This document shows positions 39,134-48,662 of a stretch of DNA of 64,000 bases, in pieces. The translations under genes and the position numbers were made by a program. Source of the stretch: Betaproteobacteria bacterium Ga0074130 (GTDB taxonomy: Bacteria > Pseudomonadota > Gammaproteobacteria > Burkholderiales > Rhodocyclaceae). The notes under the pieces are model-generated. The model searched no databases and was not told the origin of the DNA. It saw only the letters and a list, made by a program, of their open reading frames with translations. Positions within the stretch are counted from its first letter, which is position 1. Every line of letters starts with the position of its first letter. The stretch is from assembly GCA_001464495.1 (NCBI GenBank), contig LNDZ01000029.1, positions 15,455 through 79,454 on the forward strand. Reading direction: 5' to 3'.

Positions 39134-39277
39134 GAAAATGTCGGTATATATATGTGCAAAAAAACAAAACCCGCGACGGAAGTATTCCGGGCGCAGGTAA
39201 AACGCGATTATCTGACAAAGCCCCTGCTGCCGTCCAGCCCATGTTTAGCGGCTCAAACTGGGTCAAAAGCAAAGTTA

Positions 39278-39306
39278 TTGCACAATGTGAATTCTGTTTT
39301 TATAAT
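39278..39306 (+). promoter_or_regulatory. Sigma70-like promoter for the PDH operon (TTGCAC-17 nt-TATAAT)
   Basis: The -35 element ttgcac is at 39278-39283, the spacer is exactly 17 nt, and a perfect -10 tataat is at 39301-39306. This implies a leader of about 165 nt before the aceE ATG. The -10 is bracketed by an 8-bp inverted repeat, ttctgttt (39292-39299) and aaacagaa (39310-39317). Confidence 0.45.
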
Positions 39307-39477: not shown

Positions 39478-42168
<2,691 letters not shown>

Positions 42169-42278: not shown

Positions 42279-43736
42279 ATGAGCGTAATAGAAGTCAAAG
42301 TTCCGGACATTGGTGATTTCAAGGATGTGCCGGTCATTGAGATCCTGGTTAAGGTCGGTGATACGGTCAAGGCCGAGGACGCACTGGTCACACTGGAATC
42401 CGACAAGGCCACGATGGATGTGCCCTCGCCTGCAAGTGGCACCGTCAAAGAAATCAAGGTCAAGATTGGCGACAGCGTCGCAGAAGGTAGCCTAATCGTA
42501 TTGCTCGAAGCCGCTGAAGCAGCTGCTGCGCCGGCCCCCGCCGCAGCACCGGCCAAGGCAGCACCTGCGCCGTCCTCTCCTGCCGCCAGCGTTGCTAGTC
42601 TGCTGACCCCACCACCGGTGGTGGAAAGCAGCGTGAGCCGCCCGGCCGCGCCCGCTGCAGCGCCTGCACCTGCTCCTGCGCGTGCGCCGGCAGCTCCAGT
42701 TACCGCACCGCAAGATATTGTGCGCCCGACCGACGAAGAGCCGACAACGGCACCGCCGCCCGTGCACATGCCAACCCCCGCTGAACTTGCCAATATCAAT
42801 GGCGGTCAGGCACACGCTAGCCCTTCCGTGCGCCAGTTTGCACGCGAGTTGGGTGCCGACATCAACAAGGTGACAGGTACGGGCCCCAAGGGTCGTATCA
42901 CCAAGGAAGACGTGCAGGCCTGGATAAAGGGCGTACTCACCGGTGCGATCGCCAATGCCGCCGCGCCGTCTGCTGCACCGGCGACCGGTGGGGGCGAATT
43001 GAATCTGCTGCCATGGCCGAAGGTTGATTTCACCAAGTTCGGTGAAGTTGATGTGCAACCGCTGTCACGCATCAAGAAAATCTCCGGCGCCAATCTGCAT
43101 CGCAATTGGGTGATGATTCCGCACGTCACGCAGTACGACGAAACCGATGTCACCGAACTGGAAGCCTTCCGTGTCGCCATGAACAAGGACAAGGAAACCG
43201 AAAAGGCTGGCGTGCGCTACACCATGCTCGCATTCGTCATCAAGGCCTGTGTTGCTGCACTGAAGAAATATCCGCAGTTCAACACCTCGCTGGATGGCGA
43301 TAATCTAGTGTTCAAGAAGTATTACCACATCGGTTTTGCAGCTGACACGCCTAATGGTTTGGTCGTGCCCGTGGTTAAGAATGCCGATCAGAAGAGCGTG
43401 ACTGAGATTGCCCGCGAAATGGCGGTGCTATCCAAGAATGCACGCGACGGCAAGCTCCTGCCGGGCGATATGCAGGGCGGCACCTTCTCCATCTCCAGCC
43501 TCGGCGGTATCGGTGGCACTTACTTCACGCCACTGATCAACGCACCTGAAGTGGCCATCCTTGGACTCTCGAAGCTGCAGACCAAGCCACTGTGGGACGG
43601 CGAGAAGTTCGTGCCGCGTCAGGTATTGCCGTTGTCGCTCTCGTATGACCATCGCGTCATCGACGGTGCCGAAGGTACACGTTTTGTCGATTACATCGGC
43701 AAGGTGCTGTGCGATCTGCGCCGGGCAATGCTCTAA
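42279..43736 (+). CDS. aceF: Dihydrolipoamide acetyltransferase E2 (AceF) with a single lipoyl domain
   Basis: The lipoyl domain has VTLESDKATMDVPSP. Ala/Pro-rich linkers follow, then a peripheral-subunit-binding domain (ASPSVRQFARELGADI) and a catalytic domain with SYDHRVIDGA. Confidence 0.9.
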   Translation: MSVIEVKVPDIGDFKDVPVIEILVKVGDTVKAEDALVTLESDKATMDVPSPASGTVKEIKVKIGDSVAEGSLIVLLEAAEAAAAPAPAAAPAKAAPAPSSPAASVASLLTPPPVVESSVSRPAAPAAAPAPAPARAPAAPVTAPQDIVRPTDEEPTTAPPPVHMPTPAELANINGGQAHASPSVRQFARELGADINKVTGTGPKGRITKEDVQAWIKGVLTGAIANAAAPSAAPATGGGELNLLPWPKVDFTKFGEVDVQPLSRIKKISGANLHRNWVMIPHVTQYDETDVTELEAFRVAMNKDKETEKAGVRYTMLAFVIKACVAALKKYPQFNTSLDGDNLVFKKYYHIGFAADTPNGLVVPVVKNADQKSVTEIAREMAVLSKNARDGKLLPGDMQGGTFSISSLGGIGGTYFTPLINAPEVAILGLSKLQTKPLWDGEKFVPRQVLPLSLSYDHRVIDGAEGTRFVDYIGKVLCDLRRAML

Positions 43737-43738
43737 CT

Positions 43739-44311
43739 ATGACGACCATTACTGTCGTCCGTAAGAACGATGAGGTTGCGATTGCCGCCGATGGTCTAAC
43801 GACCTTCGGCGACACGCGCCTCAACCGCAGCTACAAGGGCGAACACGACAAAATCATCACTGTCGGTGACTCATGGATTGGCATCTGCGGCAGCTCGGCG
43901 CATCATCTGGTGTTTGCCAATGTGCTGAACCTGCTCACTGATGTGAAGTTCGGCACGCGCATGGAAGTGTATGAAACCTTCCGTCGTCTACATCCGCTGC
44001 TCAAGGAACACGCATATCTCAACCCCAAGGAAGACGATGACGACCCTTACGAGTCGTCGCAAATCACCGCGCTGATCGCCAATCCGAGCGGCATCTACGG
44101 TGTGTATTCCTATCGCGAAGTGTTCGAGTTTGATCGATTCTGGGGCGTCGGCTCCGGTCGCAACTTTGCCCTTGGCGCCATGTACGCGGCCTACGACAGC
44201 GATGCCAGCGCGGCCCAAATCGCCGAGCTCGGCGTCAAGGCCGGCATTGAGTTTGATACGTCTTCGGGTGCGCCTATCGTGCTGCACTCGATCTCGTTAA
44301 AGCGTAATTGA
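43739..44311 (+). CDS. HslV/proteasome-beta-like Ntn-hydrolase (probable betaproteobacterial proteasome homologue, BPH)
   Basis: The product starts MTTITVVRKNDEVAIAADGLTTFGDT..., which aligns residue by residue with E. coli HslV [26 protein letters not shown]. It has GVGSGRNFALGA where HslV has AIGSGGPYAQAA. An acidic insert, NPKEDDDDPYESS, is present. The gene starts 3 nt after the aceF stop. Confidence 0.65.
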   Translation: MTTITVVRKNDEVAIAADGLTTFGDTRLNRSYKGEHDKIITVGDSWIGICGSSAHHLVFANVLNLLTDVKFGTRMEVYETFRRLHPLLKEHAYLNPKEDDDDPYESSQITALIANPSGIYGVYSYREVFEFDRFWGVGSGRNFALGAMYAAYDSDASAAQIAELGVKAGIEFDTSSGAPIVLHSISLKRN

Positions 44312-44396
44312 CTAACCCCCTGATGCGCATGCCGTACAAGCGCATCACTACAGCCCAGCTGCAGCAGTGCAGCGGCTGAATGGAGAAAGGCTGAAT

Positions 44397-46214
44397 ATGG
44401 CTCTGATCGAAGTCAAAGTCCCCGATATCGGCGACTTCAAGGATGTGCCCGTCATCGATATCCTGGTCAAGGTGGGTGACGCCATCAAGCCCGAAGATGC
44501 ATTGGTGACGCTGGAGTCGGACAAGGCGACGATGGACGTTCCATCTCCTGCCGCCGGCACGGTCAAGGAAATCAAGGTCAAGCTGGGCGACAACATTGGC
44601 GAAGGCCATGTGATCCTGTTGCTCGAAGCCGCAGGCGCAGCTGAGGCGCCTGCGGCAGCCAAACCAAGCCCCGCCGCGGCAATGCCCCCTGCCGCTACAC
44701 CAGCAAGTGCACCAGCGGCCCCTGCTAAGCCCGCGCCCGTAGCGGCACCTGTCGCAGGCAGCTACAGCGGTAAGGTGGATGTCGAAACCGAGGTGCTGGT
44801 GCTGGGCGCTGGCCCCGGTGGTTATTCGGCAGCCTTCCGTGCGGCAGACTTGGGCTTGAAGACCGTAATGGTCGAGCGCTACAGCACCCTTGGTGGTGTC
44901 TGTTTGAATGTGGGCTGCATTCCTTCCAAGGCATTGCTGCATGTCGCCGCCGTGATCGACGAAGCAGAGCATCTCTCAACAGCCGGCATCACCTTCGCTG
45001 CCCCTAAGCTCGATATTGATGCACTGCGCGGCCACAAGGAAAAGGTCGTCGGCAAGCTGACCACCGGTTTGTCCGGCATGGCCAAGATGCGCAAAGTCGA
45101 TGTCGTGCGCGGCTTCGGCAGCTTCCTCGATGCGCATCACGTTGTGGTGGAAACCACGACAGGTGACGCACAGGAAAAAACCGGCGAGAAGAAAGTCATC
45201 CGCTTCCAGCAGTGCATCATTGCTGCGGGTAGCCAAGCCGTACACCTGCCTTTCCTTGAGCTTAATGACCCACGCATCGTCGATTCGACCGGCGCACTTG
45301 AACTCAAGAGCGTGCCGAAGAAGATGCTCGTGATCGGTGGCGGCATCATCGGCCTCGAAATGGCAACGGTGTATTCCACACTCGGCGCGCGCGTCGATGT
45401 CGTCGAAATGGCAGATGGTCTGATGCAAGGCCCGGACCGTGACCTAGTCAAGGTGTGGGAAAAGCAGAACAGCCACCGCTTCGACAACATCTGGCTGAAG
45501 ACCAAAACTGTCTCGGCTGAGGCCAAGAAGGACGGTATCTGGGTCAAGGTCGAGGGCGAAAAAGCACCAACCGATGCCCAACGTTACGACCTCGTGCTGC
45601 AAGCAGCGGGGCGCAGTCCGAACGGTAAGAAGATTGCTGCCGATAAGGCAGGCGTCAGCGTCACTGACCGCGGCTTTATCCCGGTCGACAAGCAGTTGCG
45701 CACCAATGTGCCGCACATTTTTGCTATCGGCGATATCGTAGGCCAACCCATGCTTGCTCACAAGGCAGTGCATGAAGGTCACGTTGCCGCTGAAGCAGCC
45801 GCGGGTCAGAAAGCCTTCTTCGACGCCAGCATCATCCCCAGCGTTGCTTACACGCACCCTGAAGTGGCATGGGTGGGCGTGGGCGAGGATGAAGCCAAGG
45901 CCGCTGGCCGCAAGATCGAGACCGCCAAGTTCCCGTGGGCTGCATCAGGTCGCGCTATCGCCAACGGTGCAGAGTATGGCTTCACCAAGCTGGTGTTCGA
46001 TGCGGAAACCCATCGCATTATCGGCGGCAGCATTGTCGGTCCATCGGCGGGTGACATGATTGGTGAAATCTGTCTTGCTATCGAGATGGGAGCAGATGCT
46101 GTCGATATCGGCAAGACCATTCATCCACACCCAACGCTGGGCGAGACGATTGGGCTTGCTGCTGAAGTCGCCCACGGTAGCTGCACCGACCTGCCACCGC
46201 CACGCAAGAAATAG
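44397..46214 (+). CDS. lpdA: Dihydrolipoyl dehydrogenase E3 (LpdA) with an N-terminal lipoyl domain
   Basis: An N-terminal lipoyl domain of about 80 aa (VTLESDKATMDVPSP) is followed by an Ala/Pro linker. The FAD motif is VLVLGAGPGGYSAAFRAA, the redox-active disulfide is GGVCLNVGCIPSK, and HAHPTL-like HPHPTLGE lies at the C-terminus. Confidence 0.9.
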   Translation: MALIEVKVPDIGDFKDVPVIDILVKVGDAIKPEDALVTLESDKATMDVPSPAAGTVKEIKVKLGDNIGEGHVILLLEAAGAAEAPAAAKPSPAAAMPPAATPASAPAAPAKPAPVAAPVAGSYSGKVDVETEVLVLGAGPGGYSAAFRAADLGLKTVMVERYSTLGGVCLNVGCIPSKALLHVAAVIDEAEHLSTAGITFAAPKLDIDALRGHKEKVVGKLTTGLSGMAKMRKVDVVRGFGSFLDAHHVVVETTTGDAQEKTGEKKVIRFQQCIIAAGSQAVHLPFLELNDPRIVDSTGALELKSVPKKMLVIGGGIIGLEMATVYSTLGARVDVVEMADGLMQGPDRDLVKVWEKQNSHRFDNIWLKTKTVSAEAKKDGIWVKVEGEKAPTDAQRYDLVLQAAGRSPNGKKIAADKAGVSVTDRGFIPVDKQLRTNVPHIFAIGDIVGQPMLAHKAVHEGHVAAEAAAGQKAFFDASIIPSVAYTHPEVAWVGVGEDEAKAAGRKIETAKFPWAASGRAIANGAEYGFTKLVFDAETHRIIGGSIVGPSAGDMIGEICLAIEMGADAVDIGKTIHPHPTLGETIGLAAEVAHGSCTDLPPPRKK

Positions 46215-46245
46215 GCAATAGATTCAGTAGCGTTCAGTATCAAAG

Positions 46246-46267
46246 CAGGCCGGCGCAAGCCGGCCTG
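46246..46267 (+). terminator. Rho-independent-type terminator after lpdA
   Basis: The sequence is caggccggc-gcaa-gccggcctg (9-bp GC stem, GNRA-like loop), followed by tgcatttta. It lies 32 nt after the lpdA stop. Confidence 0.55.
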
Positions 46268-46305
46268 TGCATTTTACTGGCAGTGTTTTCGCTCATAATG
46301 TGACC

Positions 46306-47994
46306 ATGTTTAACAAGCTGGCGACTCTCCTGCAGGGCGAGAAATCGAACCATCCACTCGGTTCGAAGCAGAATCTCGACCACACGCTGAGTGAAATTCC
46401 GCTCAGTGATCCATCACGGGTGCTGATTGATATTGCTGCGATGATAGAAGACATCAGTCGCTACGACAAAGAGCTCTCCCCGGCGGCATTGAGAGAAGCG
46501 CTACTGTACATCGACACCTTTGCGCGTCCGTATTACAGCAACCTGCTCCTGACTTTTCTGTTGCCGGGCACGCGCGAGCACAACTCGGAGTTGCTTTGGG
46601 CGCACCTTGATCGCCATAACCTGCTGTTGTTTCAGGGTTACGAACACTGTCTCGACGTTGCGTTGCGCAGTAAAGAAGACTTGAGTAAGACCAAGATGCA
46701 ACTGGCGCTGTGTTCAACACGCGCCATGCATGCTTGGGTAGAGCGCAAGAAGTTGCATCATTTTCGGTATCGCCCTCCCGACCTTGAGTGGTGGTTGGCT
46801 GCACACAAGATTGTCGGGCTGGCTTCTCAACATGGCGTGACCTCGTTGGTGCAAGCCGTGTACCCGGATGAGCCGCAGCTGCGCAGCACTCTGCACACTT
46901 ATCTGGCTGGGCTATATCTGGAAATCGCCCCCACGTCGAACTTGGTCAGTCTGCAGATCGAAGTTCTACACCGCTGGTTACAGCAGAATGCGAGCAACTT
47001 CGAGTTTGCAGAAGTCGGGCATGCGGGGACCAGCCACTTTATCAGCCTGCATAACCCGGGCAGTCCCACTCGCTATACAAACAGTGTGGTGCACAACCCG
47101 TCGCTACGCTATTGCTCTACTCGGCGCCTACGCACGCCGCTCCTGCAGTTTGCCAAGGACACGCGTGGTGATACACCACCGGAATGGTTACAGCCCTTCA
47201 TAGATCACCGCGAGGGCATTGATAAGCTGGTACAGACATTGTTCTCGCACTGGGCAGAAAAGCCGCCTGAACGGACCAGTCCGCGACAGGCTGACAATAT
47301 GCCTATGCGCGTTGTCCATGGCTTCAGCTTAGTGCGCCGCATGATTGCCTGCGCTGCATTTGCCAAACGAGGTAAGTCGCTCAACTACCGTGGTGCGGAC
47401 ATGGAAAGTCTGTTCAACGAATTGCGTTTTGGCAATAGTGCAAAACTCTCAGACATCGCAACCGAAGACAGTGTCGACCCATTGGAAACATTGCTCAAAC
47501 TGGAAACTTCCGGTGACAAGCAGATGATGGATGAATGGCTGAAGGTAGATGCCAGCGAAACGGGCCTAGGCGCACTGGCACCGGGACTGCGCAGCCGAAG
47601 CCGTATCGGTGAACTCGTCGGCTTTCGTTTCGACGGAGACATCGAGTGGCGCGCCGGCATCATTCGCCGTATTAGCCGCGACAAACAGAAACGTGCCAGC
47701 CTAGGCCTGGAAACACTTCCCGTGCCTTCCATATGCGCACAAGTCAGGCCGGCGAATCTTGTGCTGACGGTGTGGAGCGAGGCCTGCGAAGCTGGGAATG
47801 GCTATGTCGATGCCATCCTGCTTGCAGAAGATAGTGATACCTTGCTTCTGCCCCCAGGACTTTTTGTTGCCGACCTAGCGATTATTCTCAACGTTGGCGG
47901 CAAACGACGTGATGTTGTACTGACTGAAAAACTCGATCACGGTAACGACTGGGAGCGCATACGCTTTCAGCCAAGCACACAGGAACCCCTATGA
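46306..47994 (+). CDS. Hypothetical protein (about 563 aa), with a possible degenerate PilZ-like C-terminal region
   Basis: It lies in ORF 46267..47994. I prefer the ATG at 46306 because the GTG at 46267 sits inside the lpdA terminator stem. I recognise no family. The C-terminal segment [14 protein letters not shown] fits the PilZ D-x-S-x-x-G motif, but I found no upstream RxxxR. The stop overlaps the rpiA ATG. Confidence 0.5.
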
Positions 47995-48662
47995 CTCAAG
48001 ATGAACTGAAACAAGCCGTTGCACAAGCCGCTGTGGACTACATTGCCCAGCATGCGCCAGAAGGCGCCACCATTGGCGTAGGCACTGGCTCTACCGCCAA
48101 CTTCTTCATTGACGCACTCGTCGCGCTCAAGCCGCGCATTGGTGCCGCTGTTGCCAGCTCAGAGGCGACGCGCAAGCGCCTTGAAGGGCACGGCTTCAAG
48201 GTGTTTGACCTCAACGCAGTCGCGCGCATGCCGATCTACGTAGATGGCGCGGATGAAATCGATCCCGGCTTCGCCATGATCAAGGGCGGAGGCGGAGCCC
48301 TGACGCGTGAGAAAATTGTGGCTGCGGTGGCTGACACCTTTGTGTGCATTTGCGATGCCAGCAAGCAAGTTGATATTCTTGGTAAGTTCCCGCTGCCGCT
48401 TGAGGTCATTCCGATGGCCCGCGCACAGGTCGAGCGCGAACTCATTGCCCTTGGCGGCAAGCCCGTCCTGCGCGAAGGTTTCACCACGGACAATGGCAAC
48501 ATCATCTTGGATGTGCATGGGCTTAGCATCGGCAAGCCGACTGAGCTCGAATCCGCACTCAATCAGATCGTCGGGATTGTGACGAATGGCCTGTTTGCAC
48601 GTCGCAGTGCTGACGTCCTGTTACTCGGCACCAGCGATGGTGTGGTGACGCTGACGAAATAG
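47991..48662 (+). CDS. rpiA: Ribose-5-phosphate isomerase A
   Basis: The motifs are [25 protein letters not shown] and [13 protein letters not shown]. Confidence 0.9.

Follow-up and report, generated by a model that had tools for sequence, protein, structure and literature searches.

The Betaproteobacteria proteasome homologue (BPH) was defined in 2008 by Valas and Bourne, who described its location in the operon of the pyruvate dehydrogenase (PDH) complex and proposed that it might degrade this complex (PMC3235984). Structures followed in 2018, when Fuchs et al. also recognised three prevailing operon contexts for the gene: argG, the PDH complex (PDC) and Hsp33 (PMC5777263). Here, we analyse a BPH gene lying between aceF and lpdA in a stretch of 64,000 nucleotides (nt) from the uncultured Rhodocyclaceae bacterium Ga0074130 (contig LNDZ01000029.1, positions 15,455 to 79,454; hereafter the window). 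A first-pass annotation of this DNA had recognised the gene as a BPH and proposed an unexplored functional link with the PDH complex. It was a correct rediscovery: the identity is right, and the claims of novelty and of a function in the PDH complex are overstated. BPH as a family, its structure, its occurrence in PDH operons and the idea of PDH turnover had all been published before, and the sequence adds a new member to a subfamily already described.

The two best-described members are those of Cupriavidus metallidurans (Cm-BPH) and Thiobacillus denitrificans (Td-BPH), which assemble into a barrel of two seven-membered rings (a 14-mer) with an unusually acidic lumen (PMC5777263). The fold of BPH resembles that of proteasome beta subunits but lacks strand S12. 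Mass spectrometry showed that the start methionine of Cm-BPH is removed, and in both proteins the Thr1 nucleophile is covalently bound by epoxomicin and by MG132, with a pore loop that becomes ordered over the bound inhibitor and has been implicated in substrate recognition (PMC5777263). Neither protein cleaved standard peptides or casein in the presence or absence of SDS, and neutralising the loop did not change this. Pull-downs with tagged BPH in C. metallidurans, with or without crosslinker and ATPgammaS, recovered neither PDC subunits nor HslU; BPH left the patterns of carbonylated proteins unaltered both in vitro and in vivo; the authors also built a T1A/T2A/C3A trap construct; and a section heading of the same study describes the BPH genes as constitutively expressed (PMC5777263). 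The family descends from HslV, a heat-shock protease. A survey of 2021 still gave the unfoldase and the function of BPH as unknown, and our search of the available literature found no functional study of BPH later than 2018. What the first-pass annotation stated of the family (a tetradecamer with an acidic chamber, no unfoldase and no known substrate) is accurate, and the PDH link that it called unexplored had been proposed in 2008 and tested in 2018 by the pull-downs, carbonylation analyses, epoxomicin/MG132 labelling and trap construct mentioned above. Most of the experiments that it suggested (inhibitor binding, co-purification, a Thr1 mutant) had thus already been reported in essence. Its further statement, that the gene corresponds to the unassigned ORF3 between pdhB and pdhL of Ralstonia (Alcaligenes) eutropha, was checked only indirectly: one gene does lie between pdhB (H16_A1375) and pdhL (H16_A1377), and Valas and Bourne reported that 'the Ralstonias' carry BPH in their PDH operon (PMC3235984).

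The gene in the window opens with ATG at 43739 on the forward strand, closes with TGA at 44309-44311 and encodes a product of 190 residues. The N-terminus reads MTTITVVRKNDEVAIAADGLTTFGDT (Met-Thr-Thr), so that the nucleophilic threonine directly follows the start methionine, without a propeptide, and the product carries both the acidic stretch KEDDDDPYESS and the loop GVGSGRN (the GSG loop), all as first annotated. Comparison with five orthologues gave ratios of nonsynonymous to synonymous substitution rates (dN/dS) of 0.008-0.087. This is a genuine gene under strong purifying selection.

Several searches place its product with BPH. A phmmer search of the Protein Data Bank (PDB) returned Cm-BPH (5OVU, E = 2.4e-67) and Td-BPH (5OVS/5OVT, 3.2e-42) far ahead of the best HslV (2.4e-4), and global alignment gave identities of 59% with Cm-BPH and 44% with Td-BPH. 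The active-site residues of Td-BPH (Thr1, Asp17, Lys37, Gly50 and Ser139) align with T1, D17, K37, G50 and S138 of the window protein; as Lys37 of BPH is the Lys33 of the proteasome, the equivalents of the proteasomal Thr1/Asp17/Lys33 are all kept. The Proteasome model of Pfam (PF00227) is passed narrowly, with 26.8 bits for a cut-off of 22.4. The protein has the elongated and strongly acidic pore loop of the BPH family, at a place that corresponds to residues E97-D101 of Cm-BPH, which were mutated by Fuchs et al. An AlphaFold2 model of the monomer (pLDDT 84, pTM 0.83) was compared with known structures using Foldseek: the six best matches were all BPH chains (5OVU, 5OVS; TM scores 0.82-0.90), followed by HslV (0.57-0.72) and then by the beta subunits of the 20S proteasome. 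Confidence in the model is low in the pore loop, which agrees with the loop centre being unresolved in the apo crystal of Td-BPH. In every feature that can be tested in a sequence, the product of this gene is thus a member of the BPH family.

The closest of the described systems is Cm-BPH, which resembles the window protein over its full length, in the catalytic residues, in a KEDxDDPYESSQ loop, in the position of its gene in a PDH operon and in its place in the tree. The differences are small: the window protein has one more residue near position 33, one fewer near 62 and one fewer near 152, and a slightly altered C-terminus, and it comes from an uncultured member of the Rhodocyclaceae whereas Cm-BPH comes from the Burkholderiales. 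We found no functional distinction between the two. Td-BPH has the same fold (TM 0.87-0.90), the same set of active-site residues, with the epoxomicin adduct on its Thr1 (PMC5777263), and an acidic loop, but its loop reads EDKEDDLESS instead of KEDDDDPYESS and its context is, according to the literature, that of arginine biosynthesis (argG) instead of PDH.

HslV (ClpQ), the evolutionary parent of BPH, was the relative to which the protein had first been likened. The likeness holds for the fold of the N-terminal nucleophile (Ntn) hydrolases, the Thr1 N-terminus (TTI..VR.N) and the GSG loop, but the relation is distant: identity is only about 17-22% and the alignment to the HslV models covers only the N-terminal 60 residues. 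Membership in HslV itself was rejected, because both models were missed by a wide margin (NF003964, 29.7 bits for a cut-off of 137; TIGR03692, 29.2 for 157.75) and no hslU lies next to the gene. HslV forms dodecamers, has a short pore loop and depends on the AAA+ protein HslU, usually encoded beside it, whereas the window protein has a long acidic loop, correctly singled out at first as setting it apart from HslV, and no AAA+ neighbour. Indeed, no AAA+ gene adjoins BPH in the window or in 80 related genome loci, and a search of all frames of the window for a Walker A motif of the ClpX/HslU type (G[PSA][TSPN]G[VSCAT]GK[TS]) gave zero matches. The beta subunits of the 20S proteasome share the superfamily and the catalytic triad with BPH, and also form seven-fold rings. 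Relative to them and to Anbu, the window protein differs in lacking alpha rings and any propeptide beyond the methionine, with identities below 20% and TM scores of about 0.65; Anbu forms open split rings, unlike BPH.

We then situated the protein within its family by an exhaustive search of 1.84 billion cluster representatives, which retrieved 803 clusters at E <= 1e-3 and 435 at E <= 1e-10. Among 89 full-length and diverse representatives, the residue that follows the methionine is Ser in 51 and Thr in 38; Asp17 is present in all 89, Lys37 in 88 and Gly50 in 85, and the pore loop is net acidic in almost all. Records at NCBI name many homologues of 188-209 residues 'MFS transporter' (in Sulfuritalea, Denitratisoma, Casimicrobiaceae, Pelomicrobium and others), which looks like a propagated annotation error, while JGI labels the same homologues HslV; both labels are wrong for BPH.

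The position of the gene in the PDH operon is conserved among close relatives. The annotation of the two neighbours with Pfam and NCBIfam confirms that BPH lies between aceF and lpdA, and the stop codon of aceF (TAA, 43734-43736) is followed by 'ct' and then by the ATG of BPH, which places the start 3 nt past the last base of that stop, as had been noted. In the 80 closest genome loci, at 69-99% identity (from Rhodocyclaceae, Sulfuritalea, Sulfurisoma, Uliginosibacterium, Ca. Desulfobacillus and others; the first, L001, is 99% identical to the window), the order aceE-aceF-BPH-lpd is kept: aceF is immediately 5' of BPH in 75 of the 78 evaluable loci and an lpd with a lipoyl domain is immediately 3' in 76 of 77. 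The stop of aceF and the start of BPH overlap as RTGA (GTGA or ATGA) in 62 of 75 loci, most often with GTG as the start codon; in the window and in L001-L005, the loci nearest to it, TAA, 2 nt and ATG are found instead. Such an overlap is the usual signature of translational coupling, here between BPH and aceF. L027 departs from this organisation: this locus encodes (at 1304-1882) an intact BPH, 76% identical and nested in the PDH clade, which has on its 3' side the same FimW-like ORF and rpiA as the window (see below), but has a GT41 glycosyltransferase on its 5' side and neither aceF nor lpd adjacent to it on the 5-kb contig.

Other BPH lineages are found in other operons. Gene-called examples showed an Hsp33 context, a riboflavin context and two further ones. 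We then took a wider sample of 80 metagenome loci, retrieved with an alignment of 10 sequences headed by the family consensus, in which neighbours were classified by tblastn with reference neighbours. About 60 loci have gluQ-BPH-hslO/paiB-hslR, 9 have aceF-BPH-lpd, 8 have ribD-BPH-ribE and 2 have another organisation; the search patterns need a loop of the DPYE type, so that Td-like members (argG context) and most distant Ser1 members were not sampled, and these proportions are not to be taken as frequencies in the family. The commonest context, in full proS-slt-gluQ(GluQRS)-BPH-hslO(Hsp33)-paiB-like FMN_bind_2-hslR(Hsp15) (L084 and about 60 of L087-L166), lacks hslO in about 13 loci, where BPH is directly 5' of the FMN-binding gene. 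The riboflavin context is nrdR-ribD-BPH-ribE-ribBA-ribH-nusB and hosts a lineage of Ser1 BPHs (L085:2642-3214, L096, L133, L137, L143, L146, L155, L161 and L166) on contigs of lower GC content (41-55%); in the gene-called L085, BPH begins 2 nt past ribD and runs into the start of ribE. Neither the riboflavin context nor the gluQ-BPH-hslO-paiB-hslR cluster is mentioned in the main text of PMC3235984 or PMC5777263; the published contexts name Hsp33 only, not the full cluster. Contigs of the distant representatives were mostly about 1 kb long, and one of them yielded a further, unrelated context.

In neighbour-joining trees, the PDH-context BPHs (the window, Cm-BPH and all genome loci) form one clade with a bootstrap of 67/100, the riboflavin-context BPHs, all Ser1, form a separate one (61-72/100), and the Hsp33-context group is poorly resolved. 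The pore loop follows a single pattern, FLNPKE[ED][ED]DDPYES[ST]Q, across all three clades (PDH, Hsp33, riboflavin), and only three positions (53, 56 and 107) show fixed differences between the PDH and Hsp33 clades. Taken on gene order and sequence, the position in PDH operons is conserved and old within one BPH lineage and is not a property of the whole family.

We consider it very probable that BPH is a protease with a function common to all its lineages, for which the PDH operon is one of several hosts. The near-identical pore loop of the PDH, Hsp33 and riboflavin lineages suggests one common job and argues against a PDH-specific role, and so do the BPH of L027, without adjacent aceF or lpd, and the negative pull-downs published for C. 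metallidurans. The step from genomic position to PDH-specific function is thus not supported: the same loop occurs in Hsp33 and riboflavin operons, where the gene is embedded equally tightly, and the literature adds arginine operons.

By homology to Cm-BPH and Td-BPH, the window protein would lose its start methionine and expose Thr1, and its identity to 5OVU predicts a barrel of two rings and 14 subunits. The active sites (Thr1/Asp17/Lys37, with Gly50 in the oxyanion hole and Ser138) would face an acidic lumen, the long acidic pore loop would guard the entrance, and no AAA+ unfoldase would be needed. BPH would be transcribed as the third gene of aceE-aceF-BPH-lpdA, with its translation coupled to the end of aceF, and its production would thereby always accompany that of the PDH complex. 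The operons for PDH and for riboflavin serve housekeeping and not stress. The role that we infer is that of a housekeeping, ATP-independent and gated peptidase acting on small, unfolded and probably basic peptides or polypeptides, with the same narrow range of substrates presumably shared by all lineages and contexts. Constitutive expression would be obtained through residence in strongly expressed housekeeping operons, and different BPH lineages would have settled in different ones.

Several points weigh against this interpretation. To date, no BPH has been shown to be proteolytically active; as the proteins were inert in the published assays, the term peptidase derives from the geometry of the active site and from inhibitor chemistry. 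The PDH-context BPHs form a clade of their own (67/100) with highly conserved gene order and coupling, as a PDH-linked function predicts, and a negative pull-down is compatible with a transient contact between enzyme and substrate. The metagenome sample, finally, is biased to loops of the DPYE type, and soil Burkholderiales probably dominate its counts.

The alternative that survives best, which we regard as possible but doubtful, is the one put forward by Fuchs et al.: BPH would remove oxidised or heat-damaged proteins independently of ATP, in the manner of an uncapped 20S proteasome, and all its operon contexts (Hsp33, arginine, PDH) would be linked to stress (PMC5777263). It would fit the descent from a heat-shock protease, and the heat-shock pair formed by hslO (Hsp33) and hslR (Hsp15) is the commonest context in our sample. 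It fits less well with the PDH and riboflavin contexts, which are housekeeping. Carbonylation patterns did not change with BPH in vitro or in vivo, and the same study that favours this role lists the genes as constitutively expressed (PMC5777263).

A protease dedicated to the PDH complex, as proposed by Valas and Bourne (PMC3235984) and again in the first-pass annotation, seems unlikely to us. Such a protease would degrade or trim components of the complex, such as damaged or unassembled E2, with its flexible linkers and its basic E3-binding domain, or the lipoyl-E3, and would replace or supplement transcriptional control. The highly conserved gene order, the coupling to aceF and the grouping of the PDH-context BPHs, including that of Cupriavidus (5OVU), in one clade are all consistent with it, and the acidic chamber could attract basic segments. 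Yet the pull-downs, whether or not crosslinker and ATPgammaS were used, contained no PDC subunits, carbonylated proteins were unaffected, the loop presumed to recognise substrates is the same in BPHs of Hsp33 and riboflavin operons, the BPH of L027 has been retained without adjacent PDH genes, and only about 9 of the 80 sampled family loci, drawn with the bias described above, are in PDH operons. The more specific version of this proposal is also improbable: PDH-clade BPHs would act on E2 that is in surplus or damaged, or on the lipoyl-E3, two proteins with flexible Ala/Pro linkers; the small basic E3-binding domain of E2 would be admissible to an acidic chamber that works without an unfoldase; the coupling to aceF would set the ratio of protease to E2; and the pull-downs would have missed a transient contact. 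We leave a small probability to a PDH-specific role in view of the tight coupling to aceF, the coherence of the lineage and the chance that transient substrates escape a pull-down.

Lastly, we give little credence to BPH being a non-proteolytic Ntn enzyme that uses Thr1 for the hydrolysis of a specific amide (for instance in a modified lysine or a small molecule) or as a ligase or transpeptidase: the failure to act on peptides or casein with an active site that is competent and reacts with inhibitors, the precedent of connectase, a ligase of the same superfamily, and the cofactor-related neighbours (lipoyl proteins, riboflavin synthesis, the FMN-binding PaiB-like protein) speak for it, but epoxomicin binds as a beta-strand in a peptide groove with a proteasome-like hydrophobic S1 pocket, the closed 14-mer barrel is an architecture typical of self-compartmentalising proteases, and connectase is a monomer without helices H1 and H2.

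The features of the locus are listed in the table; neighbouring genes were assigned with Pfam and NCBIfam, and several starts proposed by the open reading frame (ORF) caller were corrected.

Features of the aceE-aceF-BPH-lpdA locus, with positions in the window
Feature	Position	Strand	Evidence
Promoter-like site (candidate), TGCACA, 16-nt spacer, TATAAT	39279..39306	+	10/12 matches; about 170 nt 5' of aceE
aceE, pyruvate dehydrogenase E1	39478..42168	+	TIGR00759, 1527.6 bits
aceF, E2 dihydrolipoyl acetyltransferase	42279..43736	+	TIGR01348, 601.6 bits; PF00364, PF02817, PF00198
BPH, 190-residue Thr1 Ntn-hydrolase	43739..44311	+	PDB phmmer, catalytic-residue mapping, AlphaFold2 and Foldseek, dN/dS
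Acidic pore loop NPKEDDDDPYESS, mature residues 94-106, net charge -5	44021..44059	+	Alignment to BPHs
BPH-lpdA spacer, 85 nt	44312..44396	+	Two hairpins without T-run; GGAGAAAGG ribosome-binding site
lpdA, PdhL-type E3 with its own N-terminal lipoyl domain	44397..46214	+	TIGR01350, 483.7 bits; PF00364, 4.3e-20
Terminator-like hairpin	46245..46268	+	Consensus scan; 10-bp stem with 8 G-C pairs, then GCATTTTACT; 31 nt past the lpdA stop

The likely start of aceE is the ATG at 39478 (MSSMPKINT); the GTG at 39154 given by the ORF caller is too far 5', the alignment to TIGR00759 beginning at residue 121 of the long ORF. The product of aceF has one lipoyl domain, an E3-binding domain and the catalytic domain, and its ATG at 42279 follows GGAGG. 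For lpdA, the true start is at 44397, against 44367 from the ORF caller. The lipoyl domain of lpdA (44397..44627) matches that of aceF (42279..42509) with identities of 82% in protein and 76% in DNA, and the two segments are a diverged direct repeat of about 230 bp flanking the core of aceF and BPH.

The four genes look like one transcription unit, because a scan for terminators found a hairpin after lpdA and no comparable one from aceE through lpdA. This hairpin, laid out as GCAGGCCGGC-GCAA-GCCGGCCTGT and followed by a T-rich tail, is the probable end of the aceE-aceF-BPH-lpdA transcript. The scan found nothing within the spacer between BPH and lpdA, and we rejected this spacer as an intrinsic terminator or structured RNA (fold z-score of -1.55 relative to shuffled sequences, no T-run). 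Promoter-like sites occur in the region as often as expected by chance, so the site upstream of aceE is a candidate only. An internal promoter of lpdA inside BPH is likewise unsupported, since the sites there have 9/12 matches (43878-43906 and 44253-44280) and their count is that of shuffled sequences.

Upstream of the operon lie the divergent folD, purE and purK, and downstream an ORF of 562 codons (46306..47994) followed by rpiA (47991..48662); no gene among all these neighbours encodes an AAA+ protein, as the first-pass annotation had said of HslU. The hairpin overlaps the GTG at 46267 proposed by the ORF caller for the 562-codon ORF, which favours the ATG at 46306 as its start. Its product had no sequence match in Pfam, NCBIfam or the PDB. 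About half of the related loci have it at this position (35-88% identity) and the others lack it, and it shares 21% identity (E = 3e-6 over 484 residues) with the product of a gene of L084 (10225-11946) that matches the Pfam model FimW_N (PF27104). It may thus be a divergent FimW-like protein (c-di-GMP/PilZ-type).

BPH belongs to the small number of self-compartmentalising proteases without a known substrate, partner or activity, and any functional handle on it would matter. The aceE-aceF-BPH-lpdA locus gives no new handle of this kind. What the comparison adds is modest: the PDH, gluQ-hslO-hslR and riboflavin contexts each match a BPH lineage of their own, the PDH lineage appears to be usually coupled to aceF in translation through the RTGA overlap, and the pore loop is nearly invariant across the three lineages. 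The Ser1 lineage of the riboflavin operon and the gluQ-BPH-hslO-paiB-hslR cluster are incremental facts on the family that are worth keeping.

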